Translations under genes and position numbers: made by a program
Source: Candidatus Nanopelagicales bacterium
GTDB lineage: Bacteria; Actinomycetota; Actinomycetes; S36-B12; UBA10799
Direction: 5' to 3'
NCBI GenBank assembly: GCA_041674545.1
Contig: JBAYVO010000001.1
Location: 89,057-153,056 of the forward strand
DNA length: 64,000 bases
Part shown: positions 2,689 to 59,802 of the stretch, piece by piece
Position numbering within the stretch: position 1 is the stretch's first letter
Layout of the letters: the number at the start of each line of letters is the position of its first letter
The notes under the pieces: generated by a model
What the model saw: only the letters and a program-made list of their open reading frames with translations
Database searches by the model: none
What the model was told of the DNA's origin: nothing

Positions 2689-4374
2689 TCACGCCACGCG
2701 GCGGTTGAGCGCCTGCGGTGCGATCAGCGCGGAGATTTCTGCCGGAGACAGCGTGCGGAACAGATCGGACTCCTCTTCCCACACGGCCGACGCCAATGCG
2801 GCCTCGGTCTCCAACATCGCCAACGCCCGCTCCTCGTGGGTATCTGTCGTAAGTAGATTGTGTACGTACACAGCCTGGAAACGAGAGCCCTGACGACGAA
2901 CCCGACCAGCAAGCTGCTGCATACGTGCTGGGTTCGGCAGCTGATCCACGTTCACCAGATGCCGAGCCACCTGCAAGTTCAGCGACTTCTCGATGGCCGA
3001 GGTCCCCAACAACACTCGACAGGACGGATCCTCACGAAACCGCTCCAGGGCGGCGTCACGAACAGCGCCACGGCGTTCCTCGCCCCAGATGACCTCGTAC
3101 CCAAGCCCTTCGGATTCCATCCGATGTGCGAGCGAACGAAGACCGTTCTTGTACTGGATGAAAACGACAACCTTCTCGCCCGCGTCGTCTTCAGATTCAC
3201 CAGCCCAGTCCCCGGTCAGACGGTCGAGCAGCCAATCGAACTTCACGGACTTACCCGGACCGTCGGGATCCCCGATTACCGACAGTCCTTCGCAAATCTG
3301 CTTCCCGTAGAGCAGCTTGTTCAACGCATTGATCCGCTGGTTCTCACCGTTGCGCACCATTTCGAGAACACCCTGCTGCAACTCGCGATACTTCTCGCGC
3401 TGCAACGGGTGCAACTCCAGAAAAATGTTCGAGGGCACGATCTCGGGAAGCTCGACATCATCGATTTGCGCCAGCGAACGGCGCAGCACCATCGGCGCGA
3501 TCTTCTCCCGAAACTCCGGAAGCCGACGAATACCGGTGGTCTCCATCTTCGTGCGCTTGACCGGACGTCCGCGCGGACCGTTGACCCAGTAGTCCACCGG
3601 CTCCTTGCGAATGTGTCGGCGCTCGAACTCGGTACGCGGACCGAGCCGGTGCAGCGCTGAACCACCGATCTGGCTCAGCGAGTCATACAGCTCCAGCAGC
3701 TTCTTATGCAAAGGCGTGGCGTTGAGCAGGATGATGCGGTCGCACGAATTGTTCTCGATGCCCAGCTTCTTGAGCGCGTGCGCCGTCTTCGTCTCGGAGT
3801 GCCGCAACGGATCCACGTCATCCATCACCAACGTGGAGATCCCCAGCTCCTGCAGCTGGTAGTAGTCCTGACGCGCCATCTGGTGACCGATGATCAGAAC
3901 ATCCCACGGCTCGGCATAGCGGTCCGCGCGCTTACGCTGCGAGCCCTCGGCCAACTCCGTGATCAGACCCGGGACCGCGCGGCGAATCTCGCGCTGCCAC
4001 TGCCTCATAGCCGTTGGCTCGCACACCACCAGAGCGCGGCCACCGCCCCGAGGTCGACTCAGCTCGCCGGTCTCGAACAACAGCGCGAACAAACCCGTGA
4101 TCACGTGAGTCTTGCCGGACCCGACAGGATCAGCGATCAGACCACGCTTGACCAGCCAAAGCCACATGACCGCAACCCGCTGGTGACGACGCAGCTTGAT
4201 GCCGCACGCCCGGCAATACGGGTTCGGATCTGGGTTTTCGGGGGCGTGCTCTGAGCACGGAGATGAGTTGAACAACGACATCTCTGGCATGCCAGGAATG
4301 TCGTAGGAATTGCGGACAATTTCGGCTGCCTCCGCCAGCGCAGCCGGATTGACCCTATCCAGAACTGAGGGCAC
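2689..4374 (-). CDS. SNF2-family DNA helicase/ATPase
   Basis: 561-aa ORF. Walker A DPVGSGKTH, motif II VMDDVD, SNF2-type LLNATPLHKKLLELY, motif VI QLAGRVRRQGS. GTG start with GAAGGA upstream. Confidence 0.8.
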   Translation of the reverse strand: MPSVLDRVNPAALAEAAEIVRNSYDIPGMPEMSLFNSSPCSEHAPENPDPNPYCRACGIKLRRHQRVAVMWLWLVKRGLIADPVGSGKTHVITGLFALLFETGELSRPRGGGRALVVCEPTAMRQWQREIRRAVPGLITELAEGSQRKRADRYAEPWDVLIIGHQMARQDYYQLQELGISTLVMDDVDPLRHSETKTAHALKKLGIENNSCDRIILLNATPLHKKLLELYDSLSQIGGSALHRLGPRTEFERRHIRKEPVDYWVNGPRGRPVKRTKMETTGIRRLPEFREKIAPMVLRRSLAQIDDVELPEIVPSNIFLELHPLQREKYRELQQGVLEMVRNGENQRINALNKLLYGKQICEGLSVIGDPDGPGKSVKFDWLLDRLTGDWAGESEDDAGEKVVVFIQYKNGLRSLAHRMESEGLGYEVIWGEERRGAVRDAALERFREDPSCRVLLGTSAIEKSLNLQVARHLVNVDQLPNPARMQQLAGRVRRQGSRFQAVYVHNLLTTDTHEERALAMLETEAALASAVWEEESDLFRTLSPAEISALIAPQALNRRVA

Positions 4375-4400
4375 GAAACGCGTCCTTCACTTGCGAGTGG

Positions 4401-4691
4401 TTACTGAATCGCTTGATCAGTCCTACCCGCCGAAGGCAGATCCCGGACGAACCGAGGGGGCGACCCCCACGTCACGAGAGGCGGTTGAGCTGCAGGTTTG
4501 CGGGGTGTCACCACCGCGACCGCATAATTCAAATCCCTAGAGAACGCCTGAATTGCCTCAGCAATCAAAGACGTGCGCCAGTCAGCCTTCATGGACATCT
4601 CCCCAGTGATGTCTGCCGACAGATCTACCAAGATAGGTGACCTGATGAAGGCGGTTAAGGCGACGTGCTCGGTGGCATCCCTGCACCACAC
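4401..4691 (-). CDS. Hypothetical protein (true start may be the internal MSMKADW...)
   Basis: ORF on the coding strand filling the gap between the nuclease and helicase genes. No recognisable motif. Confidence 0.35.
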   Translation of the reverse strand: MWCRDATEHVALTAFIRSPILVDLSADITGEMSMKADWRTSLIAEAIQAFSRDLNYAVAVVTPRKPAAQPPLVTWGSPPRFVRDLPSAGRTDQAIQ

Positions 4692-4728
4692 CGCTGCGGG
4701 ACAGATTAACCCCTCGGCACGCGAACTC

Positions 4729-33369: not shown

Positions 33370-33393
33370 GTAAGTGTCTTCGACCTAGAACGC

Positions 33394-33421
33394 AAAAAAG
33401 GGACCGGATTCGTCCGGTCCC
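33394..33421 (-). terminator. Rho-independent terminator
   Basis: Minus strand reads GGGACCGGA-CGAA-TCCGGTCCC followed by TTTTTTG: a perfect 9-bp GC-rich stem, a tetraloop and a T6 tract. Confidence 0.85.
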
Positions 33422-33424
33422 TTC

Positions 33425-33661
33425 TCAGCTGGCCTCCGCATCCGGGACCAACCCCGTCGCCTGCCAGTGCGCCAACTGACCCTCGGTCCAGCCGAGCCAC
33501 ACGTGCAGCGGCTCACCGATGGTCTTCTTACAACGACGCCATTCTCGTTCTAGAAGTCTGACTTCCTCCGCGTTCAACTGACGAACCGGATAATTCTTCT
33601 CATGAACGGAATTGAGTCTACGTGCTACTTCCTGCGGAGTTTCCGGGGGAAGAAAACTCAT
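33425..33661 (-). CDS. Hypothetical protein (78 aa)
   Basis: Last gene of the small-gene island. ATG 33661 forms an ATGA overlap with the upstream micro-ORF stop. Confidence 0.5.
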   Translation of the reverse strand: MSFLPPETPQEVARRLNSVHEKNYPVRQLNAEEVRLLEREWRRCKKTIGEPLHVWLGWTEGQLAHWQATGLVPDAEAS

Positions 33662-33741
33662 CCGCACTTACAAAAAAGGTAAGGACGTCCACACTTTGTG
33701 CAGTTACCGCGCTGAGGCGGACGGTAGAAATACCAGAACAT
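33658..33741 (-). CDS. 27-aa Cys-rich micro-protein MFWYFYRPPQRGNCTKCGRPYLFCKCG
   Basis: Below the track cutoff. AAGGAG lies 4 nt (AGTC) before ATG 33741, and its stop overlaps the next ATG (ATGA). Contains a CxxC...CxC pattern. Confidence 0.45.
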   Translation of the reverse strand: MFWYFYRPPQRGNCTKCGRPYLFCKCG

Positions 33742-33750
33742 GACTCTCCT

Positions 33751-34005
33751 TTAGTAGGGAGGATAGTAGCCACAATTCATACCAATGTTAAACATGCACT
33801 TACAGCAAAGATACCGCGTCAGTTCGTGAAAATGCCGAGGGCCTGATTGATCACCAATCTTGTGTGTAGCCGGGCCTCCGCACACGCAGATTTCTTCTAC
33901 CGCCGAGATCGAGATGGAATGGGGAGCGTAGTCCACATTGACCCGATCCGGTTCCGCCCACGGCTGGCCCAACGAAGCCAACAAATCATCCATCTCACCC
34001 GGCAC
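33751..34005 (-). CDS. Cys-rich hypothetical protein (84 aa)
   Basis: TAAAGGAG junction upstream of GTG 34005. Cys pattern CVCGG...CCKC...C. Confidence 0.5.
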   Translation of the reverse strand: MPGEMDDLLASLGQPWAEPDRVNVDYAPHSISISAVEEICVCGGPATHKIGDQSGPRHFHELTRYLCCKCMFNIGMNCGYYPPY

Positions 34006-34016
34006 GATGCGCTCCT

Positions 34017-34202
34017 TTAGTCTGTCCGACCATCAAGAGGCTGATGCACTTCCTGCCACTCGATGGATCCGTCAGGACTGACTTCGCCTTCAGAAACCGG
34101 ACCACACTGACAGTCATTCACAGGATCAACATCATGCTCTACAAGATCGTCCAACGGCACGATATGCACCCCGTGGATGGGATCATCTACTCGCGCCCAC
34201 AT
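34017..34202 (-). CDS. Hypothetical protein (61 aa)
   Basis: Start moved to ATG 34202, giving a TGATG overlap with the upstream stop. Confidence 0.45.
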   Translation of the reverse strand: MWARVDDPIHGVHIVPLDDLVEHDVDPVNDCQCGPVSEGEVSPDGSIEWQEVHQPLDGRTD

Positions 34203-34579
34203 CAGGACGGTCCCAGCAGAAGCGAGATCGCATCTCGAAGCTCCGGGCACCCGGTCATCTCAGAAGACGCGCTCAACTTCTTGCCGTCCGTGACCTCGAT
34301 ACCCCGACCATACTTGCAGTCGCAGGTACGGTTCCCGAACGACCGGTACGCGCACACCTCCCGACGTACCGCCTCCAGCGACGCCGCCAGTTCCACGCGC
34401 CTATCGTATTCCGGCGCGAGCACATGCTGGGCCATCAACGGAGCCCATTCGGGATGTCCAGCACGCTGCATCTCGTAGAGAGCGACGTTCAGCGCCCGCT
34501 TCGCGTCATCGACCTCAACGTTGGTCTTCAGATAGACCCGCTGCAGGTTGGCCCGCGCTTCCTCAACCGACATCGACAT
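34202..34579 (-). CDS. Hypothetical protein (125 aa)
   Basis: GGGAGGA RBS before ATG 34579. No motif recognised. Confidence 0.55.
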   Translation of the reverse strand: MSMSVEEARANLQRVYLKTNVEVDDAKRALNVALYEMQRAGHPEWAPLMAQHVLAPEYDRRVELAASLEAVRREVCAYRSFGNRTCDCKYGRGIEVTDGKKLSASSEMTGCPELRDAISLLLGPS

Positions 34580-34943
34580 TCGAATCCTCCCAACCCGGAG
34601 ACATGCACGTCGTCCACGACGCCTTGGTCAACGACCCGTCCTTAGAACGCCGGACCAGAGAATCCCGGCCGTTCCACGTCACGCACGGCTCGACTACCAC
34701 GCACCGATCACCAGAGCAGATGGTCACCACCTCGTTGCGCACCGGCATCCAGTACTCAGACTCGACGTCGCCCCGATGCAGCAACCACTGCAGGCGCCAC
34801 CAGTACTCCAACAGCGGGAGAACGATGCCTCGGCGCCAGAACAGATACACCAGCATGAACGGAACGCGAACGGCCCAGAACCGCGTCGACACCGAGCCGT
34901 CCGTAGGCTTCTTGATGTACAAACGAATCGTCGAAAGTTCCAT
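34563..34943 (-). CDS. Hypothetical protein with an N-terminal hydrophobic segment (126 aa)
   Basis: TGATG coupling with the DUF397 gene. Contains RFWAVRVPFMLVYLFW. Confidence 0.5.
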   Translation of the reverse strand: MELSTIRLYIKKPTDGSVSTRFWAVRVPFMLVYLFWRRGIVLPLLEYWWRLQWLLHRGDVESEYWMPVRNEVVTICSGDRCVVVEPCVTWNGRDSLVRRSKDGSLTKASWTTCMSPGWEDSNVDVG

Positions 34944-35140
34944 CAGATGACCGGATCAAACTCTTCCGGATCGAACTCACCCAGCTTCACGCCACGAATG
35001 AATGCGCTCCACTCGCTCCGGGTAAATCGCAACTTCGGGCCGTCCGACTCCTTGGTGTCGCTGATGAGGAACACAGCGTCCTCGCGCGAGAACTCGACGT
35101 CGACACAGTCACCGGACGGGTTCGAAAAGGACGACTTCAC
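34943..35140 (-). CDS. DUF397 (BldB-like) domain protein
   Basis: VKSSFSNPSGDCVDVEF...VFLISDTKESDGPKLRFTRSEWSAFIRGVKLGEFD matches the actinomycete DUF397 pattern W/xKSSxS..G.CVEV...RDSK.P.GP.L.F....W..F...VK.GEFD. Start is GTG 35140 with a GTGA overlap. Confidence 0.85.
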   Translation of the reverse strand: MKSSFSNPSGDCVDVEFSREDAVFLISDTKESDGPKLRFTRSEWSAFIRGVKLGEFDPEEFDPVI

Positions 35141-35349
35141 GGCTTGGTGCGCTCCTTCCATGCCTTCTTGAACAGATCCCAGTTCACCCGCTGCCGATCG
35201 ATCCATGGCGCCGCGTCCCAGGCGTCCACGATCTGCTCGTACAACTCTTCACACGAGTTCAGATCTTCAGCTCGCTCTGCGGCGTCGTACTTCTCATTCA
35301 ACTCCAGCCACTCCTGCAGAGACGGCGGGACTGCCAAATCAGCGCTCAT
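35137..35349 (-). CDS. Hypothetical protein (70 aa)
   Basis: Start is preceded by a junction motif copy (35347-35364). Confidence 0.55.
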   Translation of the reverse strand: MSADLAVPPSLQEWLELNEKYDAAERAEDLNSCEELYEQIVDAWDAAPWIDRQRVNWDLFKKAWKERTKP

Positions 35350-35364
35350 GCAGGTGTTCTACCC
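35347..35364 (-). repeat. Start-associated junction motif copy
   Basis: Minus strand GGGTAGAACACCTGCATG. The TAG is the stop of 35359..35565 and the ATG is the start of 35137..35349. Confidence 0.8.
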
Positions 35365-35565
35365 GCTAGTGAGCTGCCAGAGCCCCCACAAAGACAGGCC
35401 AAAGGCCACCACCGTGATCACCGGCAGCAAAACCCACGCCCACTGCCCCGCCTCATCCGAGATGCAGAACAGAATCACCCACAACATCCACACGAGGAAC
35501 GCCGCAGCGACCGCACCAAAAAAGACTCCGAGCAACTCCAAAAACGGAGGAAGCGTGATCGTCAC
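35359..35565 (-). CDS. Small membrane protein (2 TM)
   Basis: 68 aa: LGVFFGAVAAAFLVWMLWVILF...WAWVLLPVITVVAFGLSLWGLW. GTGA overlap at the start. Confidence 0.55.
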   Translation of the reverse strand: MTITLPPFLELLGVFFGAVAAAFLVWMLWVILFCISDEAGQWAWVLLPVITVVAFGLSLWGLWQLTSG

Positions 35566-36224
35566 GTCCGGATCACCACGGTATTGCGCACCTCAACACT
35601 GTTAGTGCGGCCACGTTGCGCGCGAGAATCCGCCTTGACCGACGACGACTGTGTCTGAGTCTCCGAAGGGAAACGACCGGACAGCAGATCCATCATTTTC
35701 TCGACATTGTTCTCAACAATGTGAGTGTAATCCACACCATCCAAAACCAGCAGAATGGCAAGCTTGCCGTCACGAAGTGCGTAGATCAGCTCTACAGAGT
35801 CGGTGAACAGACTCAGAGCCCAATAGCCGCGCTCGTGACCCACTTCAAGAGACTCGCCAAACCCGGCCGACAGATGCTCATACGCCTTCTGAATGAGCTT
35901 GGGGGCATCTTCGATATTTGCGCCAGTCGGAAAGTCGCGAGGAAGACTTTGACGGTAAGTAGGGTCGCGCCACAACTTACCGAAATCGTCATCCAGCCAC
36001 ACAGTAGGACGCTGCTTACCATCAACAGACAGCTTCACGTTCTTGAGGAACGTGCGTCCGCTCGGACTGACCTTGAAAAACGCCTCGTTGCGGACCCGGC
36101 CGTTATTGGCGATCAGCGTCCAGCCGCGCGTCACCTTAATGACCTCGGGGACCTCCCCCGTCTGTGCAACAACACGTTCGATGTATTCCTGCACAGACGG
36201 GGGATAGATCGAAACATCAGCCAC
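35562..36224 (-). CDS. Hypothetical protein (220 aa), abuts the nucleotidyltransferase gene
   Basis: GTG 36224 follows directly after the upstream TGA. No motif recognised. Confidence 0.6.
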   Translation of the reverse strand: MADVSIYPPSVQEYIERVVAQTGEVPEVIKVTRGWTLIANNGRVRNEAFFKVSPSGRTFLKNVKLSVDGKQRPTVWLDDDFGKLWRDPTYRQSLPRDFPTGANIEDAPKLIQKAYEHLSAGFGESLEVGHERGYWALSLFTDSVELIYALRDGKLAILLVLDGVDYTHIVENNVEKMMDLLSGRFPSETQTQSSSVKADSRAQRGRTNSVEVRNTVVIRT

Positions 36225-37037
36225 TCAGCACCAGCCCCAGTACTTCTTCAGCGTGTCGATGACCCACGCATCGATCTTCTGGTAGTCCGGCTTCTCCGGG
36301 AGCGGACCGGCACCGGACTTCATCAGATCAAAGATCTCCGCTTCCAGCGCTTCCGCGCGACCCAGAGCTTCCTGCTTGGTGTACTTACCCACACGAAGGT
36401 CCCGGATCCAGGTGAGATCCGGTTCCGGGATCGGAAGCGTGATCGAACCGGTCTTGAGCAGCTCCACGCCCTGCACGCCGAGACGCACCATGTGCCCCGC
36501 GAACTTCGTATCGAAACCGTACTGCTCCCTGATATCCGCACGGCCCTGGTTGCGAGTACCGCCCGAGCGCAGGCCCAGCAGACCCTCACGCTGCGAACGC
36601 AGATATCCCGCGTACTTGAACCCGTTGCTCCGCGAAAGAAAAAGATGCCGGTTCTCTCGCAGCGAGCGGCCCCACTGATTTGCAAACAGCACATGCTCCT
36701 GGGGGACAAACAGCGGAAGCTGCATTGTCGGATTCCCCTGTGCCACCAGATCGACATAATGCCGAAGATTGTAAGCAACAAAGTCCAGGTCACCCGGACC
36801 GGAGCACACACCCTCGGGCTTGGTGCGCCAGGTGTACGTCTTGGTGTTCACCGACCCCAGAACCTGACGAGGGTGCTCCAGCCACACACCCATCTCATCG
36901 CGGTCGTCGGTTCCCTCGATCGACGTGCCATGCACACCCGAGCCCGCCAGCACGCGCAGGATCATGCCCTCGCGTGCGACCTTCTGGCGCGGGCTGTCCG
37001 GAAGGATCGGAATAACTTCGTTGAATTTAGCGCTCAC
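36225..37037 (-). CDS. Pol-beta-superfamily nucleotidyltransferase (predicted)
   Basis: LAGSGVHGTSIEGTDDRDEMGV fits the G-S-x9-13-D-x-D NTase motif. 270 aa. Confidence 0.6.
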   Translation of the reverse strand: MSAKFNEVIPILPDSPRQKVAREGMILRVLAGSGVHGTSIEGTDDRDEMGVWLEHPRQVLGSVNTKTYTWRTKPEGVCSGPGDLDFVAYNLRHYVDLVAQGNPTMQLPLFVPQEHVLFANQWGRSLRENRHLFLSRSNGFKYAGYLRSQREGLLGLRSGGTRNQGRADIREQYGFDTKFAGHMVRLGVQGVELLKTGSITLPIPEPDLTWIRDLRVGKYTKQEALGRAEALEAEIFDLMKSGAGPLPEKPDYQKIDAWVIDTLKKYWGWC

Positions 37038-37052
37038 GTAAATCTTCTACTC
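37035..37052 (-). repeat. Start-associated junction motif copy (degenerate)
   Basis: Minus strand GAGTAGAAGATTTACGTG, with the same 9-nt TAG-to-start spacing. Precedes the nucleotidyltransferase gene. Confidence 0.5.
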
Positions 37053-37515
37053 ATTCCTTAGGAGGATCGCAGAACTCCGGAGGCGGGTCCGTCACCCACG
37101 CCGGAGTGATATCCCGGTCCTCGAACTGAGGATTGCGCGTCCACACGCCGCCGGGCTTACGCTCCCACGCCTGCTCGATGTAGCACCCGACCGACGACAT
37201 CGACTCGCCCGCACCACGACACTCATGCCACGGCGGATCACCGTAGCGGAAGTTCTCCGTCAGGTAATCGAGGTTCCACTCCGGCGGAAGCTCATCGCCT
37301 TCACGGAAGCTCCGGTACCGGTCATAGCGTGTCCAGCCCTCACCGACCGACATGCGCAGAGCACACGCCTGACACTCGATGCGAGCCAGCACGGCCCACG
37401 TGTCGTAGACGCCCAGCATCCGAGGATGGAAAGCCGCGTAACGCGGAACCCCGTAGCCATCGTGCCACAACGGGGTTCCGGCAATCTCGCGAATATCCTG
37501 ATAGTCAGGAAGCAT
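37051..37515 (-). CDS. Hypothetical protein (154 aa)
   Basis: Start is preceded by a junction motif copy (37513-37530). Confidence 0.6.
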   Translation of the reverse strand: MLPDYQDIREIAGTPLWHDGYGVPRYAAFHPRMLGVYDTWAVLARIECQACALRMSVGEGWTRYDRYRSFREGDELPPEWNLDYLTENFRYGDPPWHECRGAGESMSSVGCYIEQAWERKPGGVWTRNPQFEDRDITPAWVTDPPPEFCDPPKE

Positions 37516-37530
37516 GTCAGAGTCCTACCC
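37513..37530 (-). repeat. Start-associated junction motif copy
   Basis: Minus strand GGGTAGGACTCTGACATG. Confidence 0.8.
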
Positions 37531-37965
37531 CGGGAGAAGACGCCTTGAGAACAAGTCCTTCAGCTCAAGGCGCGCCTGCGCTTTCCACTGCTCCTCGGTG
37601 CACGGGGAATACTCACCCCACACCTTCTGACCGAGCAGCCGACAATCGTAGTCCGCCTCGGTGGGATCGTTGTCGATCGAATAGCCCTCCCGCTCCTGAT
37701 AGCTCGGAGCGGGATCCCGGAACGGGCAGTCAGGACAGAACGAACCCGGACCGTAGTCCGGGGACATCGTCGAACCGTTGAGCAGCCACTGCAAAGCCGG
37801 ATAGAAATGCTCGTCAGCAGAGTCCGCCATCTCAGCGAGAGTATCGCCGTAGAGAGACAGCGTGCACTCAGAGCACGACAGTCCCCAAAACACCTGACCG
37901 GTGTAACGGCGGTAGGAACGCAGCTTCGAGCGGTGCACCAACGGCATCGCCCCGCGCTCAGACAT
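37525..37965 (-). CDS. Cys-rich hypothetical protein (146 aa)
   Basis: ORF on the coding strand. Its TAG stop lies inside a junction motif. Confidence 0.55.
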   Translation of the reverse strand: MSERGAMPLVHRSKLRSYRRYTGQVFWGLSCSECTLSLYGDTLAEMADSADEHFYPALQWLLNGSTMSPDYGPGSFCPDCPFRDPAPSYQEREGYSIDNDPTEADYDCRLLGQKVWGEYSPCTEEQWKAQARLELKDLFSRRLLPG

Positions 37966-38158
37966 CAGAAAGTCCCGGAACCTTTACGCCCCAGCACCTA
38001 GCTACCTTGCGAAGCACCGTCGTCGCATAAATGACGGACTCCTGCGTGTTGTACCCCGCCTGCGAGTAAATACGAATCAGATGATGAACTGCCTCGTGGA
38101 GAGCGTCTTCATCCACCGAAACCGGCAGACACACCATGACATCCTCGACGTTCTCCAC
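37958..38158 (-). CDS. Hypothetical protein (66 aa)
   Basis: Start moved to GTG 38158, with GGAGG 8 nt upstream, just after the upstream TAG. Confidence 0.45.
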   Translation of the reverse strand: MENVEDVMVCLPVSVDEDALHEAVHHLIRIYSQAGYNTQESVIYATTVLRKVARCWGVKVPGLSDV

Positions 38159-38160
38159 GA

Positions 38161-38364
38161 CTACACCTCCGGAGGGAACGCCACGTCCCAACACGACGGG
38201 CAGATACCTGACATCAGCTGCTCACGACGGTCCACACTCAGATCACTCAGAGCTTCCTGAATATGTGCACCGTGCTTCCACCGGTTGTACCCGATCTGAT
38301 CGACCTCGAACTCGTCGACCTTGTGACACGTCGGGCACTCGGAACTTACCAACAATACGGACAT
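38161..38364 (-). CDS. Zn-ribbon protein (CPTC...CPSC)
   Basis: 67 aa with two CxxC pairs. TGACATG junction. Confidence 0.55.
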   Translation of the reverse strand: MSVLLVSSECPTCHKVDEFEVDQIGYNRWKHGAHIQEALSDLSVDRREQLMSGICPSCWDVAFPPEV

Positions 38365-38365
38365 G

Positions 38366-38695
38366 TCACTTACCCACCGGACGCTTGCCTCCGCAAAACT
38401 GATCCCACTCGGTCATCCGCAGCAGCGGCGTCGCGCCACCACCGCTGTCGCTACGGCCCGACGACGGCGTGGCGAAACCCAGGCCATCGACACACACCTT
38501 GGCGATGTTCGGGTACAGGTCTGCGTTGCGATACACCTCGATGTAGTCCACGTCGCTAACCACATCGACCGGAGAGCCCTCGTGGCCGCCCCGGTCACCG
38601 AGCTGCTCCGCACACCCGGTCAGCAGCGCGAGCGACAGCCCAGCGCCGACCAGAACACCCACAACACGCTTAGTCCTCACGGGGATCCCTTTCAC
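38366..38695 (-). CDS. Lipoprotein
   Basis: Signal peptide with lipobox: VLVGAGLSLALLTGC. GTG 38695 is preceded by a variant junction motif. Confidence 0.7.
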   Translation of the reverse strand: MKGIPVRTKRVVGVLVGAGLSLALLTGCAEQLGDRGGHEGSPVDVVSDVDYIEVYRNADLYPNIAKVCVDGLGFATPSSGRSDSGGGATPLLRMTEWDQFCGGKRPVGK

Positions 38696-38710
38696 AACGA
38701 AGTTCTACCG
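38693..38710 (-). repeat. Start-associated junction motif copy (variant, GTG start)
   Basis: Minus strand CGGTAGAACTTCGTTGTG. Precedes the lipoprotein gene. Confidence 0.6.
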
Positions 38711-38860
38711 GGGACGACGCTTCTTGCGGTCGACCACAACAGGCTTAGCAATGCTCAAAATATGCTCAGAAAACTCGCACCCGGGACGGGCGCAGTACCG
38801 CATGCTGCGCTGGGTCAGAAACTTGCCGTGACCACACTCAGGGCATTTCCATGCGCTCAC
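38705..38860 (-). CDS. Zn-ribbon mini-protein (51 aa)
   Basis: GAGGAG RBS, then GTG 38860. Contains KCPECGHGKF...YCARPGCEF. The track's 139-aa version overlaps the exonuclease gene. Confidence 0.5.
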   Translation of the reverse strand: MSAWKCPECGHGKFLTQRSMRYCARPGCEFSEHILSIAKPVVVDRKKRRPR

Positions 38861-38870
38861 GGCACACTCC

Positions 38871-39374
38871 TCAGCGGTCGCCTTCGAGCAGCCGCTCGAA
38901 CGCCTCGACGTTGCCCTTCGCATCGTTGACCGGGTTATGGTCATGCGGGGTCCGACGGTACTTCTTCCATCCCTGCGTGTTCGGGAAGTTGTCCTTGAGC
39001 CCGGCGTAGTAGTCCGAGATCCGACGGCCCGAGTGCCCGAACGGGTTGTCCCGATCAGCACGGTCGAACATGCCCGCGATCCACATGAAGTCGTAGGCAG
39101 GGTTGTCCGACACCAGCACCGCACGCGAACCCTCGGGAAGCACGTTCAGCAGCCACAAGCCGAGATCGATCGACACCTCCTCGTCGGAGGCGACGCGCTC
39201 ACCCACCACGGGAATCGCCGGATTCTCCGGATCCGGGTACGACTCGAACAGCCGACCGTGGAAAGTCTCTCGCGAGGTGAAGTGCACACACCCGAACTCG
39301 GTCAGCGTGCCGTTCACCGGAGACCGGCCCCGCGCTTCGCAGTCTACGAAAATCAGCTTGTCCAGGTATGCCAT
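38871..39374 (-). CDS. DEDDh (DnaQ-like) 3'-5' exonuclease
   Basis: Exo I FVDCEA, Exo II LVSDNPAYDFMW, Exo III HDHNPVNDAKG (H-x4-D). Confidence 0.7.
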   Translation of the reverse strand: MAYLDKLIFVDCEARGRSPVNGTLTEFGCVHFTSRETFHGRLFESYPDPENPAIPVVGERVASDEEVSIDLGLWLLNVLPEGSRAVLVSDNPAYDFMWIAGMFDRADRDNPFGHSGRRISDYYAGLKDNFPNTQGWKKYRRTPHDHNPVNDAKGNVEAFERLLEGDR

Positions 39375-39389
39375 GTCAGTGTTCTACCC
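39372..39389 (-). repeat. Start-associated junction motif copy
   Basis: Minus strand GGGTAGAACACTGACATG. The upstream gene stops at TGA 39391-39393, so this TAG is not a used stop. Confidence 0.8.
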
Positions 39390-39390
39390 G

Positions 39391-39663
39391 TCAGAAAAGA
39401 ACTTTGATGATCCGGGCCAGACACACACCCGGAGGCGGCGAGGGGTTCAGCACGACCACGCGGGCCTCAGACGGGTTGTGCCGGAACGAATTCGCGGGCA
39501 CCAGCACCCAATTGCCCACTCGCGTCGACGTGGGCGCCAGGTAGGTGTAAACCCGGCCCAGCGGGTCGAACTGCACACCGACGGTGAAGTCTTCCTCCGC
39601 CGACGCCATGAACGACACGATCTCCGTATCAGAGATCGTCAGCTCTTCAACGTTGGTAACCAT
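39391..39663 (-). CDS. Hypothetical protein (90 aa)
   Basis: Start is preceded by a junction motif copy (39661-39678). Confidence 0.55.
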   Translation of the reverse strand: MVTNVEELTISDTEIVSFMASAEEDFTVGVQFDPLGRVYTYLAPTSTRVGNWVLVPANSFRHNPSEARVVVLNPSPPPGVCLARIIKVLF

Positions 39664-39678
39664 GTAGGTGTCCTACCC
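39661..39678 (-). repeat. Start-associated junction motif copy
   Basis: Minus strand GGGTAGGACACCTACATG. The upstream gene stops at TGA 39681-39683. Confidence 0.8.
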
Positions 39679-39680
39679 GG

Positions 39681-39914
39681 TCAGTACGCAGTGCCCTGGA
39701 TGTCCAGCCGATGGTCCTCCAGCAGCCGCACACGCTCGCGGAACGAATCGATCGCCGCCTCCACGGTCAGCTCCACCTCGTCAGCGACCAGGGCGTCCGC
39801 AATCTCCTGCAGCTCCCAGCACTCGACGATGATGTCCCACCCATCCTCGTGGTAGCGATGCTCGGCGTAGGCGTAGACAAACTTCGCCAGCTCCATGGGG
39901 GTGTGCTCAGCCAC
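39681..39914 (-). CDS. Hypothetical acidic protein (77 aa)
   Basis: ORF on the coding strand with an 8-nt overlap onto the upstream gene. Confidence 0.5.
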   Translation of the reverse strand: MAEHTPMELAKFVYAYAEHRYHEDGWDIIVECWELQEIADALVADEVELTVEAAIDSFRERVRLLEDHRLDIQGTAY

Positions 39915-40161
39915 GATTCCTCTTCACCCTGTGCGAATCCAACATTTCGCGGTGCTGCTCAGTCCACCAAGCGCGGAACTCACGTGACACCCGCAGAGTC
40001 TCGCCGGTAAAGGCGAAATACCTAGCCTGCTCCCACGTCGGAAAAGCCCAGCCCCGAGACGAACCAACCGGCCGCACGTGCCAAGGCCACGCAGCCGCCT
40101 CCGGAGTGCCGTAACCCTTCTGACCCGGGCGAATCTTGAAAACCTCACACCGCCTAGTCAC
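39907..40161 (-). CDS. Hypothetical basic Trp-rich protein (84 aa)
   Basis: ORF on the coding strand with 8-nt overlaps on both sides. Confidence 0.5.
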   Translation of the reverse strand: MTRRCEVFKIRPGQKGYGTPEAAAWPWHVRPVGSSRGWAFPTWEQARYFAFTGETLRVSREFRAWWTEQHREMLDSHRVKRNRG

Positions 40162-40630
40162 GACGATCCACCTTGTACGTGAAACGCTGCGTCGTACGGA
40201 AATACGCCACAGCCTTCATCATCTCCAGCGCCTGATCCAGATCAACGTGAGCACCCTCCCAGAACGGAGTGCCCATCTGCTCCAGGAGCATCTCGTCCTC
40301 CCCCTCGGGCAGCGGCCACACCCGGAACCGGCCCTCGCGGTCCACGAGCATCATTGCCGCCGCAGGAACAGGAAACGACTGCTCCGCCATCACGCACTCT
40401 CCCGAGAGGTGCGCACCAGATCCCGCGTCGCCAACTTGCCCACGCCCAGCGCCAGCAACAGCCCACCCAGAAACACCGAAACCACCCAGAACGTCAGCCC
40501 GAAGTCCAGCAACGCCCCCGATGAGCGCCACCGCGAACAGCCCCACCCGGATCACCAGACGCAGCACCAGCGTGACCAGCTCATCGAGCGAACGCAGCAG
40601 CGCCTCTTCGCCACTCACCTCAGGCATCAT
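40154..40630 (-). CDS. Hypothetical protein with an N-terminal TM segment (158 aa)
   Basis: Start moved to ATG 40630 (ATGA overlap). Contains LVTLVLRLVIRVGLFAVALIGGVAGL. Confidence 0.5.
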   Translation of the reverse strand: MMPEVSGEEALLRSLDELVTLVLRLVIRVGLFAVALIGGVAGLRADVLGGFGVSGWAVAGAGRGQVGDAGSGAHLSGECVMAEQSFPVPAAAMMLVDREGRFRVWPLPEGEDEMLLEQMGTPFWEGAHVDLDQALEMMKAVAYFRTTQRFTYKVDRRD

Positions 40631-40833
40631 GCACTCCCGAACTGGAACGAAATGAAGCACTCGTCCTCACCGGGAATGAATCCCAGCTCATCGAGCCGAG
40701 CCAACTCCTCAGAAGAGAACAGGCCCGGATCCACGCACACGGTCAGCACGTCATGCTCGCAATGCGTAGGCGACGAAGGGTTAGCGCGCGTACGCATCAG
40801 CAGCAGGATCCCAAGAAGCGCAAGATCGATCAT
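40627..40833 (-). CDS. Hypothetical protein (68 aa)
   Basis: ORF on the coding strand. No motif recognised. Confidence 0.45.
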   Translation of the reverse strand: MIDLALLGILLLMRTRANPSSPTHCEHDVLTVCVDPGLFSSEELARLDELGFIPGEDECFISFQFGSA

Positions 40834-40839
40834 CCATCA

Positions 40840-41055
40840 CTACACCCCAAAGATCATGGTCGTCGCCGGAACACCGGTCAGACCCGTCACGACCAGCGCA
40901 ACCGCGACCGAGCCGATCAACAGCAGCCCGACCGCAGGAAGACACCCGATCTCGCCACCGGAGTCGCGGCGGGCCAGCAGGAAAATCACCGCCACTTCGG
41001 CCAGCGCGAGCACTACACCGCAGATCAGCGCGGTCAACTGGATAGCAGGACTCAT
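40840..41055 (-). CDS. Small membrane protein (3 TM)
   Basis: 71 aa, hydrophobic throughout. Start is preceded by a junction motif copy (41053-41070). Confidence 0.55.
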   Translation of the reverse strand: MSPAIQLTALICGVVLALAEVAVIFLLARRDSGGEIGCLPAVGLLLIGSVAVALVVTGLTGVPATTMIFGV

Positions 41056-41070
41056 GTAGCACTCCTACCC
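41053..41070 (-). repeat. Start-associated junction motif copy
   Basis: Minus strand GGGTAGGAGTGCTACATG. Confidence 0.75.
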
Positions 41071-41223
41071 GAGCAACTTGATCAGTCCCTGCTCAATCAA
41101 CTCATCGAGCAGTGCATCCGCAGACTGCAGGCGCAGATCCGCAGTCAGGTAATCCGGCGGGAAGTAGCTCTCGATCAACGCCACCGCGCATTCACGAACC
41201 GTAAAACCCGAGTAATCAGACAT
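41065..41223 (-). CDS. Hypothetical protein (52 aa) MSDYSGFTVRECAVALIESYF...
   Basis: Below the track cutoff. Bracketed by two junction motif copies; its TAG stop lies inside the downstream copy. Confidence 0.5.
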   Translation of the reverse strand: MSDYSGFTVRECAVALIESYFPPDYLTADLRLQSADALLDELIEQGLIKLLG

Positions 41224-41404
41224 GTCGGTGTCCTACCCGGTAAAGGTCGGGAACGGCCTGATGGAACCCGCGCCACTTCCGGCACCGCGCCGGGAGATGC
41301 TCCACCCAGATACCCGGACCAAAAAACTCCCAAAGAACTCCATCCAGCACGAACACCAGACGGGTGCAGTTCTCGCACGGATCGCAATCATCGAAGTTGC
41401 TCAC
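41216..41404 (-). CDS. Hypothetical Cys-containing protein (62 aa)
   Basis: GTGA overlap at its start. Its 3' end reads through a motif copy. Confidence 0.45.
   Translation of the reverse strand: MSNFDDCDPCENCTRLVFVLDGVLWEFFGPGIWVEHLPARCRKWRGFHQAVPDLYRVGHRHV
41221..41238 (-). repeat. Start-associated junction motif copy
   Basis: Minus strand GGGTAGGACACCGACATG. Confidence 0.8.
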
Positions 41405-41601
41405 TTGCCGAACACCTTTCGATACAACCGCGCCGCCATGTCAGAGACATTGACGTAAATCAACGCCTGGGCGTAGTCGGTATTCTGCGACGCCGGGCGG
41501 GTGAGCAGATCCTCCGGGATGGGCTGATCCGACAGCTCCTGCGCGTACACCTCGTGGATGTCAGACTCATCGACCAGCTGCAGCAGCCACTTGTATCCCA
41601 T
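41401..41601 (-). CDS. Hypothetical protein (66 aa)
   Basis: Start is preceded by a junction motif copy (41599-41616). Confidence 0.5.
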   Translation of the reverse strand: MGYKWLLQLVDESDIHEVYAQELSDQPIPEDLLTRPASQNTDYAQALIYVNVSDMAARLYRKVFGK

Positions 41602-41616
41602 GTCAGGGTTCTACCC
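41599..41616 (-). repeat. Start-associated junction motif copy
   Basis: Minus strand GGGTAGAACCCTGACATG. Confidence 0.8.
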
Positions 41617-41793
41617 CTCCGACGCCTCTTCCCACTCTGCGTAGGAATCGAACAGCGACGGACCCTCACCCGGGAAATCCAGGCCGATGACCGGACCCTC
41701 CACCGAACCATCCGGGCGGATGATGCGCACAATCGTGTACCAGCGATGCACGTCGAACTCGACACGGTCAATCGGACCCTCAATAATCTTCAT
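41611..41793 (-). CDS. Hypothetical protein (60 aa)
   Basis: Start is preceded by a junction motif copy (41791-41808). Confidence 0.5.
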   Translation of the reverse strand: MKIIEGPIDRVEFDVHRWYTIVRIIRPDGSVEGPVIGLDFPGEGPSLFDSYAEWEEASEG

Positions 41794-41808
41794 GTCAGAG
41801 TTCTACCC
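41791..41808 (-). repeat. Start-associated junction motif copy
   Basis: Minus strand GGGTAGAACTCTGACATG. The upstream gene stops at TGA 41795-41797 in another frame. Confidence 0.8.
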
Positions 41809-42130
41809 TAGAGGTGTAGCGATACGCCTGACGCATACGAACTTCCACATTCAGTCGAATGTCAATACGCTGCTGCATAGACGGATAAGAATACTTACCG
41901 CTCATGCCTCTAAAAGTAGTCATCGCAACAGACTGCACCGGAGAGGGGCCCGGAGTAGCGGCCTCCAAATAATTTCCCTTGCGGCTCACGACAGCGTCGA
42001 GCTTCTTACTCCTAGTGACGGCCCAGTCCAAGGCGTCCGCAGCCTCATCAACGCTGACCTGCCACAACACCGCAGCCGCGACCAGTAGGTCACAGGTGCG
42101 GGCAACACGCTCATCTCCCCAACGAGTCAT
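41795..42130 (-). CDS. Hypothetical protein (111 aa)
   Basis: Start is preceded by a junction motif copy (42128-42145). Confidence 0.55.
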   Translation of the reverse strand: MTRWGDERVARTCDLLVAAAVLWQVSVDEAADALDWAVTRSKKLDAVVSRKGNYLEAATPGPSPVQSVAMTTFRGMSGKYSYPSMQQRIDIRLNVEVRMRQAYRYTSRVEL

Positions 42131-42145
42131 GTCAGGGTCCTACCC
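42128..42145 (-). repeat. Start-associated junction motif copy
   Basis: Minus strand GGGTAGGACCCTGACATG. The TAG is the stop of the EndoVII gene. Confidence 0.8.
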
Positions 42146-42973
42146 GTCCAGCGAGGACCGCGCGTGGCGGAGGATGTACTCGTCGAACGCCGCTCCGGAA
42201 ATGTTCATAGTCTCCAACCGACCTAATGTGGTGTTACAGCTGAAACACAGCAGCTGACGAAGACACAAACCGCAGGACTGCCGACCCGGACAACACGCGT
42301 GGTCGTGATCCACAGCCAACCGACGATCACCCGGCGAAGCCCCACAAATGGCACAAACCCACCCCTGAGCATCCGCCATACGTTCATAATCTTCAACAGT
42401 AAGTTTATACAAAAACCAAATTCTACTTACCCAAACCTGATCTAAATAAAGCTCACGCTGATCGTCAGTCATAGAGTCATAACGAACTTTACGTTCAATT
42501 TTACGACAAACTCGGCATACGACCTGATATCCAGATTCGACCGTCTGGTCTTCATAAAAACTAAGCACAGGCTTGCTCTCACCACAGGTAAGACACACCC
42601 GGACGCCATCGACAACCGGGTTTTCCTGATCCTTGATCGAAGGAAGTACATAGTCCGGACCACGCCACTTCTCCGCCTGCTTGGCGTTGGCCTTGCGCTG
42701 CAGCGCGCGGGCACACGGGAGACAGCGTCCGGTAAGACGCCTACCCTCACCGCGATTCTTCTTCACCAGCTGCGCCAGCTCCATCGGAAGCTTCTCCCGG
42801 CACTGCGTGCAGGTGAACTCCGGATCCTCAGGCGTGAGGCCACGGTTGGGCTGACGCTCAGACGGCGTCTGCTTCATGCCAGGGCGGGGGATACCCGGGC
42901 GCCCGGACCCGGGACGAGGAACTCCCTTCCCACCCTTAGACGGCGGACTGCCAACAAAAACTGCGTCTTCCAC
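42140..42973 (-). CDS. Recombination endonuclease VII-family homing-type endonuclease with N-terminal Zn ribbons
   Basis: LAVDHDHACCPGRQSCGLCLRQLLCFSCNTTLG is the EndoVII signature. Several upstream CxxC pairs. First gene after the capsid terminator, with a low-GC patch. Confidence 0.8.
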   Translation of the reverse strand: MEDAVFVGSPPSKGGKGVPRPGSGRPGIPRPGMKQTPSERQPNRGLTPEDPEFTCTQCREKLPMELAQLVKKNRGEGRRLTGRCLPCARALQRKANAKQAEKWRGPDYVLPSIKDQENPVVDGVRVCLTCGESKPVLSFYEDQTVESGYQVVCRVCRKIERKVRYDSMTDDQRELYLDQVWVSRIWFLYKLTVEDYERMADAQGWVCAICGASPGDRRLAVDHDHACCPGRQSCGLCLRQLLCFSCNTTLGRLETMNISGAAFDEYILRHARSSLDG

Positions 42974-42984
42974 AAAACCTCCAG

Positions 42985-43033
42985 AAACGACTGAGAGGGC
43001 AGAACCCCTTTCACAGGAGTCCTACCCTCTCAG
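42985..43033 (-). terminator. Stem-loop terminator downstream of the major capsid gene
   Basis: Minus strand reads CTGAGAGGGTAGGAC-(13 nt loop)-GTTCTGCCCTCTCAG, a 15-bp stem with two G-U pairs, followed by TCGTTTCTGG. The 5' arm contains a GGGTAGGAC motif copy. Confidence 0.7.
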
Positions 43034-43102: not shown

Positions 43103-44125
43103 TCAGTTGGCGACGCGGGCGACGAGCACCTGCTCGGGGCGATAGATCACCGGGAGGAAGTGTTGTTCGATGAGATACTGGCGACTGGAAGGGTCTTTCT
43201 CCTTCCAGGTCTTAGCAAATCGACCTGTAAAGCCACGAGGGGCCTCATCGTCGGCAGTCGGGCCAAGCATGAACTCCATGGGACGGTTGTCCGAGAGGTT
43301 GGCAAAAATAATCTTGCCGTCACCCAGGAACATCGTCTCATTACCAGCCGCGTCCTCGTAGACCGACTCGGTGGTCGTCCAGTTGAGGCCCATGAAGCCC
43401 GGCATGGTGCCCGACGAGTAGTACTCGTCCTTCATGCGGTCCGACATCAGGCCAGCGGCGTTACCGTCGGTGGCGAAGGCGTCGAAGATCAGCGACAGCG
43501 TCTGCTCGGTGCAGAACGCCTCGCGGACCGGGACCTGACCATCACGCTGGATCAGGCGCTTCCACGCCCGGATGTCAGCGATGATCTGCGAAGCCGATGC
43601 GCTGGCCCAGAGGGTCGACGCGGTGGGCTTGTGCGAAGCCGAGAACTTGTAGTCGATCGACGCCTGAACGTCGTCGTAGTCGAACACCAGCTGACCCTGG
43701 AGAGCCTGCCACGCGCAGTACTCCATGAAGTTGTCAAAGCGGGTGTTCAGGTCGTTGATCTCACGGAGAACAGCGGCCTCGGCGTTCTTGGCGGCAAGCG
43801 ACCCTGGCTCACGGATCCAGTGGATCGTGGTCGGCTCGAATACCTTCTTCTCGCGAAGGTAGACGAACGCGGCGCTTTCCTGGCTCCGACCGAGCCGAGG
43901 CACGATGTGCGCCTCGGAGTTCGGAACGTTGGGCTTCGCCACGCTCCGGGAACCCTTGATCACGTCCCACTTCGCCACCGGGTAAGGCCACGGCTGCTTG
44001 GAGAGACGGTTGACCAGGATCAGGTTCTCCGGAGCCTTCATCTTCTCGACCACGCCCATAAGCACGGTCGGCTCCAGCAAACTGATGTCCGGCAACTCTG
44101 TCACCTTTCTCGCTGACGCAGTCAC
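43103..44125 (-). CDS. Major capsid protein, lambda gpE-like
   Basis: 340 aa. C-terminus GRFAKTWKEKDPSSRQYLIEQHFLPVIYRPEQVLVARV parallels lambda gpE RYPKNWVTTGDPAREFTMIQSAPLMLLADPDEFVSVQL. Paired with a gpD-like gene upstream. Confidence 0.85.
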   Translation of the reverse strand: MTASARKVTELPDISLLEPTVLMGVVEKMKAPENLILVNRLSKQPWPYPVAKWDVIKGSRSVAKPNVPNSEAHIVPRLGRSQESAAFVYLREKKVFEPTTIHWIREPGSLAAKNAEAAVLREINDLNTRFDNFMEYCAWQALQGQLVFDYDDVQASIDYKFSASHKPTASTLWASASASQIIADIRAWKRLIQRDGQVPVREAFCTEQTLSLIFDAFATDGNAAGLMSDRMKDEYYSSGTMPGFMGLNWTTTESVYEDAAGNETMFLGDGKIIFANLSDNRPMEFMLGPTADDEAPRGFTGRFAKTWKEKDPSSRQYLIEQHFLPVIYRPEQVLVARVAN

Positions 44126-59778: not shown

Positions 59779-59802
59779 ATCCCAGTCTTCGTGCAGTCCG
59801 TG

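Follow-up and report, generated by a model that had tools for sequence, protein, structure and literature searches.

The DNA analysed here, a stretch of 64,000 nucleotides (hereafter, the window), belongs to a contig of 186,198 bp (ENA ERZ27247358 k141_2474284; window position + 15,496 = contig position). This contig carries phage structural genes: a major capsid gene (44125..43103), a Mu-type portal gene and two open reading frames (ORFs) of 3,121 and 3,292 residues. All the genes of the window lie on the minus strand. The source looks like a large uncultivated phage of actinobacterial type (~186 kb), which also appears to be lytic, and no repressor or integrase was seen in the ~81 kb of the genome that we examined. 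The proteins of the contig are labelled 'MAG: Candidatus Nanopelagicales bacterium' at NCBI despite the capsid, portal and tail genes; the contig seems to be a phage genome that was binned with a bacterial metagenome assembled genome (MAG). The subject of this work is a nine-base sequence of the window, GGGTAGRAC, that recurs in a single orientation and typically stands exactly six nucleotides before an ATG. It is a real, strongly non-random and lineage-conserved regulatory element.

The element is best seen in an island of small genes, which is found between the major capsid gene and the head-tail genes and is delimited by two hairpins:

33392..33424, minus strand: strong hairpin resembling an intrinsic terminator, with a U-tract (-27 kcal/mol, z = -5.4), which closes the island
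33425..42973, minus strand: island of ~30 small genes (~9.5 kb)
42991..43033, minus strand: terminator hairpin of the capsid gene, with a 19-bp stem (-38 kcal/mol) whose 5' arm holds GGGTAGGAC (43019-43027)

Being bracketed by two strong hairpins, the island fits a unit with its own promoters inside a late operon. It is headed by an endonuclease VII-like gene and also encodes an RlaP-like nucleotidyltransferase. Relatives whose capsid protein is at most 72% identical have the head-tail genes directly after the capsid gene, and no island. The two closest relatives, the loci L005 (capsid identity of 89%) and L070 (86%), have an island at the same site, made almost entirely of different genes and carrying the same motif. 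The genes common to the islands of the window and of L070 are few and come in a different order. A nucleotide search with the island (megablast, phage collection) gave no match.

Using a codon-usage-based map of the genes of the window, and 100 dinucleotide-preserving shuffles for the expectation, we found 10 exact matches to GGGTAGRAC in the window, all on the minus (coding) strand. The expected number is 0.46, the maximum among the shuffles was 2, and none of the 100 reached 10. The full 18-mer, GGGTAGRAC-N6-ATG, is exact at eight sites (35347, 37513, 39372, 39661, 41221, 41599, 41791 and 42128) and has one mismatch at 41053 (GGGTAGGAG). Each strong copy adjoins the start of an ORF with coding potential. 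The copies of the island, in the direction of transcription from the capsid gene, are the following, the last three being variants:

42128..42145, minus strand: motif copy GGGTAGGAC-cctgac-ATG; the TAG ends the endonuclease VII-like gene (42973..42140) and the ATG opens 42130..41795
41791..41808, minus strand: motif copy GGGTAGAAC-tctgac-ATG; the upstream stop is the TGA within CTGAC and the ATG opens 41793..41611
41599..41616, minus strand: motif copy GGGTAGAAC-cctgac-ATG; the TAG is the upstream stop and the ATG opens 41601..41401
41221..41238, minus strand: motif copy GGGTAGGAC-accgac-ATG; the likeliest upstream ORF (41404..41216) runs through the motif and overlaps the start, and the ATG opens 41223..41065
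41053..41070, minus strand: motif copy GGGTAGGAG-tgctac-ATG, with the G at -7 that is a common variant among relatives; the TAG is the upstream stop and the ATG opens 41055..40840
39661..39678, minus strand: motif copy GGGTAGGAC-acctac-ATG; the upstream stop is a TGA 2 nt 5' of the motif and the ATG opens 39663..39391
39372..39389, minus strand: motif copy GGGTAGAAC-actgac-ATG; the upstream TGA is 1 nt 5' of the motif and the ATG opens 39374..38871 (weak Rv2179c-like exoribonuclease match)
37513..37530, minus strand: motif copy GGGTAGGAC-tctgac-ATG; the TAG is the upstream stop and the ATG opens 37515..37051
35347..35364, minus strand: motif copy GGGTAGAAC-acctgc-ATG; the TAG is the upstream stop, the ATG opens 35349..35137, and the L070 homologue also bears the motif
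38693..38710, minus strand: variant copy CGGTAGAAC-ttcgtt-GTG; the TAG is the upstream stop and the GTG opens the ORF 38695..38366
37035..37052, minus strand: doubtful copy GAGTAGAAG-atttac-GTG, before the gene of the RlaP-like nucleotidyltransferase and with an SD-like (Shine-Dalgarno-like) AAGGAA stretch upstream
33894..33902, minus strand: weak variant CGGTAGAAG, without a start codon at +1 and possibly a chance match

The initial annotation had listed eleven start-linked copies. Eight of these are perfect, the copy at 41053 has one mismatch, and the one at 38693 is credible, as relatives (L070, L084) also have its CGG variant before gene starts. The copy at 37035 is doubtful, because it breaks the G at -14 (with the A of ATG as +1), which is invariant in 62 of the 62 copies of the census described below. 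The constant distance of 9 nt between TAG and start codon holds in all strong copies. Also as proposed at the outset, the upstream stop sometimes lies elsewhere: the TAG is the stop at six copies, other stops are used at 41791, 39661 and 39372, and the ORFs overlap at 41221. Counts, strand bias and spacing support a repeated, oriented, start-adjacent element that goes beyond a stop codon plus a ribosome-binding site. Its supposed confinement to 35.3-42.2 kb did not hold, as the window has a further copy near its left end:

4420..4428, minus strand: leadered copy, lacking an ATG at +1; the SNF2 helicase gene (4374..2689), led by a GAAGGA SD of its own, begins with a GTG 53 nt downstream

A strict census with the pattern GGGTAG[AG]A[CGT] gave 62 copies in ~191 kb from seven related phage genomes. 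The conserved block extends from -15 to -7, with G at -15 (C in the variant), G at -14 and -13, T at -12, A at -11, G at -10, a purine (R) at -9 and A at -8, and its positions -15 to -8 are nearly invariant (~14 bits). GGGTAG is invariant in these 62 copies, which were selected by this very pattern, and CGG variants also exist. G is found at -9 in 44 of them and A in 18 (29%), while at -7 there are 43 copies with C, 14 with G and 5 with T. The six bases after the core vary across the clade, the genome of the window preferring nCTGAC. The last of them is a pyrimidine in 55 of the 62 copies (89%), against 31 of the 55 window genes that lack the motif; it is followed by a purine at +1 in 54 (87%) and a T at +2 in 44. 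All nine strong motif genes of the window start with ATG, as opposed to 28 of the 55 others. Upstream of the core nothing is conserved. No -35 element was found in the 62 copies, whether by testing GTTT, GNNT, TTGAC, TAAA and GGAAC or by column information content and k-mer counts, and neither GTTT, GTT nor G..T is enriched at the expected -35 offset (12-16 bp upstream) relative to flanking segments. The 18-mer shuts two of the three reading frames, with the TAG at -12 and, in CTGAC, a TGA at -4, and therefore frequently serves as the upstream stop.

The motif belongs to the phage lineage and not to the island of the window alone. In the islands of L070 and L005, (G/C)GGTAGRAC-N6-ATG/GTG precedes their own, non-homologous genes. 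The replication-gene region of the contig, which lies beyond the left end of the window (L079), has copies before two gene starts and before one 8-codon mini-ORF, as well as one without an ATG. All five further phage loci (L082, L083, L084, L087 and L088), which were found via homologues of a sigma gene of this phage, carry the motif; relatives were reached through protein matches only. An earlier census of ~158 kb counted 57 forward and 4 reverse copies, the latter being about the chance level, and an ATG or GTG lies exactly 6 nt past the core in 39 of the 57. With the independent gene calls of the source databases, 24 of 46 copies fall exactly 6 nt before a called start, 15 are at junctions or intergenic and 7 are 'inside' a gene, most of these seven being one conserved site that falls in the final 30 nt of a small ORF lying upstream of SNF2. 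A perfect GGGTAGGAC lies reversed in a 25-nt intergenic gap of L079 (15913-15921, minus strand of the locus). An antisense promoter is one possibility and a chance occurrence another, about four reverse copies being expected by chance.

More distant relatives are of less help. Related capsid genes occur at 74 IMG/VR loci, and 8-mer frequency tables of distant relatives brought out no lineage-specific motif. A scan of IMG/VR with GGGTAGRACNCTGACATG returned four stretches only, each with a single copy, and the N6 consensus is particular to this genome. Deposited phages include a single relative, Microbacterium phage Magritte (capsid identity of 58%), whose genome lacks both GGGTAGRAC and any equivalent start-adjacent 9-mer; since its counterpart of the sigma gene, located beside its helicase gene, is in addition only 27% identical, we rejected it as a cultured model. 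In the Magritte genome (OR553905.1, L085) we also observed GATATCCCTGACATG before the scaffolding gene (~18355-18373, upstream of start 3375) and GATATCCCTGATGACC upstream of gene 23 (~21967-21982, start 6998). The CCTGACATG part of these is identical to the spacer and start of several copies of the window; the GGGTAGRAC core is missing.

About one third of the copies are leadered, meaning that the next start lies ~20-121 nt downstream and that the gene has an ordinary SD. Examples are L087 11242 (..GAAAGGA..GTG), 13023 (..GAGGAG..GTG) and 18866, as well as L082 17672 and, upstream of DnaB, L082 20625. The scan of relatives relative to gene starts thus speaks against a purely start-associated element, as which the motif had been described. 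Two of these sites are conserved in position. The copy before the operon of the SNF2 helicase, ribonucleotide reductase (RNR) and sigma genes is found in six genomes (the window, L082, L083, L084, L087 and L088), and the one over the stop codon of the sigma gene is kept in five of the six genomes sampled (not in L088). The flanks of both are less conserved than the motif itself, and the sigma proteins there are 50-78% identical to that of the window phage. Two other copies with an ATG (L079 20375 and L005 4037) open mini-ORFs of 8-10 codons ahead of an SD-led gene. These mini-ORFs (L079 20390-20418 and L005 4052-4084), the first of which has a stop that overlaps the start of the SD-led gene (TGATG), may be leaderless upstream mini-ORFs.

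The motif could also be a signal acting at the RNA level in translation, comparable to the start-associated sequence (SAS) of Cluster K mycobacteriophages: GGGUAGRAC would be a ribosome-binding or termination-reinitiation signal for SD-less cistrons of a polycistronic mRNA, read by the 3' end of 16S rRNA or by a phage or host RNA-binding factor. This is the main rival to a promoter, and we regard it as unlikely. The motif does occupy the place of the SD, with an AGGA core 7 nt from the ATG, and its GGGTAGGAG variants contain AGGAG. Contrary to the initial claim that it is a poor SD, its comparison with the 16S 3' end gave a mean anti-SD duplex energy of -7.1 kcal/mol for motif genes against -7.6 for other genes, a difference that is not significant. 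Twenty of 38 copies provide the upstream stop with their TAG, above the third expected from random frames, and junctions are tight, the upstream stop being inside the motif or at most 20 nt away in most copies. The bias towards ATG and the single orientation mirror the SAS. Furthermore, the window gene 40161..39907 has AAGGTGGA and GTG where its L070 homologue has the motif and ATG, so that motif and SD are interchangeable.

However, several observations are at odds with a translation signal. The leadered third of the copies lies 20-120 nt from starts and is followed by ordinary SDs, two of these sites being conserved in position across 4-6 phages. The A found at -9 in 29% of the copies disrupts the AGGA pairing, and the pyrimidine at -1 has no known translational role. 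The spacing is invariant at 6 nt, while those of SDs and of the SAS (3-9 bp) vary. Finally, the ATG copies at L079 20375 and L005 4037 would give only the 8-10 codons of their mini-ORFs before the SD-led gene. An enrichment of AGGAG (G at -7) in start-type copies was considered as a sign of SD function and rejected (~23% against 21%, by hand count).

The Cluster K SAS, GGGATAGGAGCCC, are start-associated repeats located 3-9 bp before the starts of genes that are more than 50 bp away from their upstream neighbour (PMC3203893), and their function was still called unknown in 2024-2025 (PMC11373665, PMC12699233). They had been proposed as the closest precedent, which is right for position, orientation, bias towards ATG and association with non-homologous genes, and fails for the sequence, the tight junctions and the copies far from starts. 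Both elements are asymmetric and short, recur in one orientation a few bases before starts, have 10-20 copies per genome and are conserved across related phages, and in both the upstream stop is sometimes within the motif. Their sequences resemble each other loosely, GGG(A)TAGGAG in the SAS against GGGTAGRAC here. The consensus nonetheless differs: the AGGAG core is missing in most of our copies (AGGAC or AGAAC), the spacer is fixed at 6 nt instead of 3-9 bp, and gaps of more than 50 bp are replaced by tight junctions. We saw no ESAS-like inverted repeat, a third of the copies is far from any start, and the phage lineage is a different one, an uncultivated phage of ~186 kb with a sigma-28-like factor. 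Searching the window for GGGATAGGAGCCC gave no match within 2 mismatches and 14 at 3 mismatches (17.7 expected), none of them at motif sites. The motif string was not found in any phage context in the searchable literature, and a search of Rfam gave no match.

Taken together, the evidence, which is drawn from sequence comparison, favours transcription initiation over translation initiation. Where position-conserved copies without an ATG precede SD-led genes a promoter fits and a translation signal does not. We therefore lean towards a phage-specific promoter that yields leaderless mRNAs. GGGTAGRAC (-15 to -7) would be the -10-type core of a lineage-specific promoter devoid of a -35 box, the 6-nt discriminator would run to the pyrimidine at -1, and the purine at +1 would be the first base transcribed. 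When +1 is the A of the ATG, the mRNA would be leaderless and need no SD; when it is elsewhere, the transcript would have a leader of 20-120 nt and the gene would retain its normal SD. A leaderless start demands an exact position, hence an exact spacing of 6 nt and not a range. The swap between SD and motif in gene 40161..39907 and its L070 homologue agrees with this reading. As by-products, the TAG and often the TGA of the element would terminate the upstream gene, and the element would act as a recombination junction for small-gene cassettes, because it is the sole sequence common to unrelated neighbouring genes. We infer from sequence the initiation at the motif, the start site at the ATG and the sigma factor that would read it.

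Translation of leaderless mRNAs is well documented in Actinobacteria. Promoters of Mycobacterium tuberculosis have SRN-TANNNT at -12 to -7, no -35 consensus, with C favoured at -1, a purine at +1 and T at +2, and 26% of those genes that have a primary transcription start site (TSS) are leaderless (PMC3898074). In Deinococcus, an ORF-adjacent -10 element was shown by experiment to drive leaderless genes with strict spacing (PMC12340547). Our element resembles these -10-only leaderless promoters of M. tuberculosis, M. smegmatis and Deinococcus-Thermus (PMC3898074, PMC6448022, PMC12340547) in having its -10 at -12 to -7 with an S/R/N triplet upstream and no -35, a pyrimidine at -1, a purine at +1 that is the A of the ATG, no SD and a strict spacing to the ORF. 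It differs from them in having C or G at -7, where they have the housekeeping TANNNT, and in that consecutive genes each carry a copy.

The core itself is known from another class of promoters. GGGTAG is the mapped -10 hexamer of SCO1566p and SCO7446p, two promoters of Streptomyces SigB homologues, in a set where GGG and the A at the fifth position are almost invariant and where the stretch given from the hexamer up to and including the TSS column has 8-11 nt (PMC8346170). The -10 motif of mycobacterial SigF is GGGTA (PMC6448022). Our copies share with such SigB/SigF-type promoters (GGGTAT, GGGTAG or GGGTAC; PMC8346170, PMC6448022) a GGGTA(G) identical to mapped -10 elements, the invariant GGG and A at position 5, and a compatible distance from hexamer to start (~9-10 nt); moreover, the phage encodes a group-3-like sigma factor. 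Unlike them, they have no GTTT/GNNT -35 at 12-16 bp and conserve RAC after the hexamer, and the sigma factor of the phage, whose region 4.2 has diverged, is nearer to FliA/WhiG than to SigB/F.

The gene of this sigma factor (L079:14480-15277) begins ~105 nt past the left edge of the window, downstream of the SNF2 helicase and RNR genes. Its product belongs to the sigma-70 family, with matches to FliA/WhiG (E = 6e-17) and SigB/F/G (E = 1.5e-7) that are all below the curated cut-offs. The match of a 16-homologue profile to the sigma-28 structure 1rp3 is full-length and covers regions 2-4 (E = 4e-25). In the clade the recognition helix of region 4.2 is swapped, with PEISxDPxMSxxAxxWV instead of the ITESRASQLH of more distant homologues, a divergence that would fit the loss of -35 reading. 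Homologues of 50-78% identity are present in the motif-carrying relatives, and sigma gene and motif co-occur in seven genomes; the homologues came from the protein database, and a single-sequence search of IMG/VR for the gene gave no match. The near invariance of the GGGTAGRAC block and a -7 that is not T imply a dedicated sigma or other factor. The most likely reader would be a group-3 sigma factor, either the sigma-28/SigB-F-G-like factor of the phage or a host sigma of the SigB/SigF type. After the sigma gene, in an intergenic region of 65-120 nt and downstream of a motif copy, we also observed a conserved block (~CTACACA-R-TAG-Y-T / TAGTAG; L079 15300-15330, L083 10720-10750 and L082 10830-10860), which may be another regulatory site.

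T4 late promoters (TATAAATA) are read by the phage sigma factor gp55 without a -35 element, and their transcripts are leadered. The element described here is similarly phage-specific, of ~8-9 bp, -10-only and plausibly read by a divergent phage sigma factor. It differs in sequence, host phylum and temporal class, as it precedes replication and accessory genes and not virion genes. A likeness to the single-subunit RNA polymerase promoters of SP6 and K11 was also considered and dropped, as the register fails.

A number of points weigh against a leaderless promoter. The base at -7 is C or G and not the T that is near-universal in the -10 elements of primary sigma factors, and there is no detectable GTTT/GNNT -35 box, which is usual for SigB/F-type promoters. 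A promoter before nearly every small gene would be unusually dense. The pairing of the motif with the 3' end of 16S rRNA is about as strong as that of average SD regions, and the motif's use as the upstream stop in 20 of 38 copies suggests a coupling to translation termination. Of the first four copies examined downstream of the sigma gene, only two have a purine at +1. The pairing of sigma factor and motif is drawn from adjacency and co-occurrence, and the factor could serve late promoters instead. Lastly, initiation at the motif is something that we infer.

Phage-specific promoter motifs and leaderless expression are both known, and here they would be combined in one element. The most complete version of this proposal is an 18-bp junction that would unite an upstream stop codon, a -10-only promoter read by the sigma-28-like factor of the phage and a leaderless start, so as to make up shuffled SD-free cassettes. 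We put it forward as a tentative model, and one that is more doubtful than probable.

The same fixed spacing, the C at -1 and the copies within 5' leaders would be explained equally well by processing of the RNA, with a phage or host endoribonuclease that recognises GGGUAGRAC and cuts ~6 nt downstream to release monocistronic, near-leaderless mRNAs. The GA/CAU context (the slash marking the cut) is similar to the preference of mycobacterial cleavage for C at +1. Among the products of the island are RNA-related enzymes, namely the RlaP-like nucleotidyltransferase and the protein with the weak Rv2179c-like exoribonuclease match. Yet a nuclease with a linear recognition site of 9 nt is not known in these systems, and we found neither a conserved RNA structure nor an Rfam match. 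The product would be a 5'-monophosphate C before the AUG, which is not a true leaderless end, and both the match to a -10/TSS architecture and the adjacent sigma gene would be coincidences. We thus consider processing quite improbable.

The stoperators of Cluster A mycobacteriophages (the sites of L5 gp71) are bound by the repressor in temperate phages and stand in no fixed register relative to start codons. The motif could be an asymmetric operator of this kind, at which a phage DNA-binding protein would modulate transcription through regions of small genes; it shares with stoperators the many short asymmetric sites in a single orientation relative to transcription, at stop/start junctions and short intergenic gaps. 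Pope et al. contrasted the SAS with the 13-bp L5 stoperators, which regulate transcription (PMC3203893). Such an operator leaves unexplained the exact distance of 6 nt to the ATG and the pyrimidine/purine pair at -1/+1. Besides, no repressor is evident in this large, apparently lytic phage (nor was an integrase seen in the part examined), and its structural operons have no copies, though a global repressor would need to silence them. We judge an operator to be very improbable.

Another possibility is that the element is mainly a recombination junction, with an 18-mer that persists, in the manner of the boundary sequences of lambdoid phages, as a short homology for cassette swaps and has no role in expression. 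In the alignment of L005 with L070, the sequences are unrelated upstream and become homologous, and mostly identical, exactly from GGGTAGAAC to the next motif copy (a single example). The islands of the window, L070 and L005 share the motif and few, reordered genes, and an endonuclease VII-like gene heads the island. However, nine conserved bases are very short for homologous exchange, and such a junction explains neither the strand specificity, the exact distance to the ATG and the -1/+1 preference nor the conserved copies before core operons that are not shuffled (SNF2-RNR-sigma, DnaB). A purely recombinational role therefore seems to us hardly credible. T4-like phages have cassettes known as promoter-early stem-loops (PeSLs), made of a terminator and a sigma-70 promoter, that mediate modular shuffling (PMC2839356, PMC4122927). 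PeSLs are documented exchange points and are also promoters, and recombination is for this reason a complement to a promoter and not its competitor. As with PeSLs, repeated regulatory motifs here flank small variable ORFs in hyperplastic regions among core genes, and serve as points of exchange. PeSLs are longer composites, whereas hairpin and motif come together here only at the capsid terminator, the other copies having no stem-loop and adjoining a start codon.

That copy in the stem of the capsid terminator had been pointed out in the initial annotation and is indeed present. Downstream of the hairpin come a GGAGG SD and then the GTG of the first island gene. GGGTAG is also found in the 5' arm of the hairpin in L005 and L070, in versions that deviate at -8 or -9. 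The hairpin could serve both as a terminator and as a promoter of the first island gene.

Two side observations concern the genes of these islands. In L005 an island gene upstream of the motif (4093-4831) is markedly AT-rich relative to its surroundings, a composition that suggests a recent foreign origin. In L070 a sequence resembling the T-arm of a tRNA (GGTTCGAGTCC, ~15380-15425) lies directly upstream of a motif copy and suggests the presence of a tRNA gene inside the island.

If the motif is a leaderless promoter, nine bases and a fixed spacer would replace a promoter, a 5' untranslated region and a ribosome-binding site, as well as the stop codon of the upstream gene. Genes preceded by it would be self-contained SD-free cassettes that can be placed anywhere, even in the middle of a capsid-tail operon, and a block of accessory genes of early type could be expressed independently inside the late structural operon. 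This would be an actinophage counterpart of the PeSL-mediated shuffling of cassettes in T4-like phages. It would also provide a promoter and sigma pair for an uncultivated phage clade, with potential as an orthogonal expression part in Actinobacteria, and a second, independent case of start-associated repeats to be compared with the Cluster K SAS, for which it would offer a testable hypothesis. If the signal acts at the RNA level instead, it would be a new SD-independent element of translation or processing conserved across a phage clade.

A search of the intergenic gaps of the window for a distinct late-promoter motif gave nothing convincing beyond a second, weak pattern, GAAGAC-N6/7-ATG/GTG. 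It precedes four genes of the structural module (6622-6636, 33367-33381 and 59776-59790 of the minus strand, plus the start at 45898, with a 7-nt spacer), has 5 matches where 1.4 are expected, and is in the same 'RAC-N6-start' register as the main motif.

Among the other features of the window, a stretch of 456 nt in the head-tail gene block (30211-30666) has no convincing ORF on the coding strand. The two giant ORFs were considered as candidates for a virion RNA polymerase and rejected, as Pfam gave only Mu-F/NUDIX and LysM matches. The one of 3,121 residues (46876-56241, minus strand), after the portal gene, has a weak Mu-F-like match at its N-terminus and a NUDIX domain. The one of 3,292 residues (16237-26115, minus strand) has LysM repeats and is probably a tape-measure protein or a tail-associated lysin. 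Finally, the genes of the virion module include those of a sortase-domain protein and of collagen-repeat proteins (60486-61079 and the region of 61730-62413, both on the minus strand).

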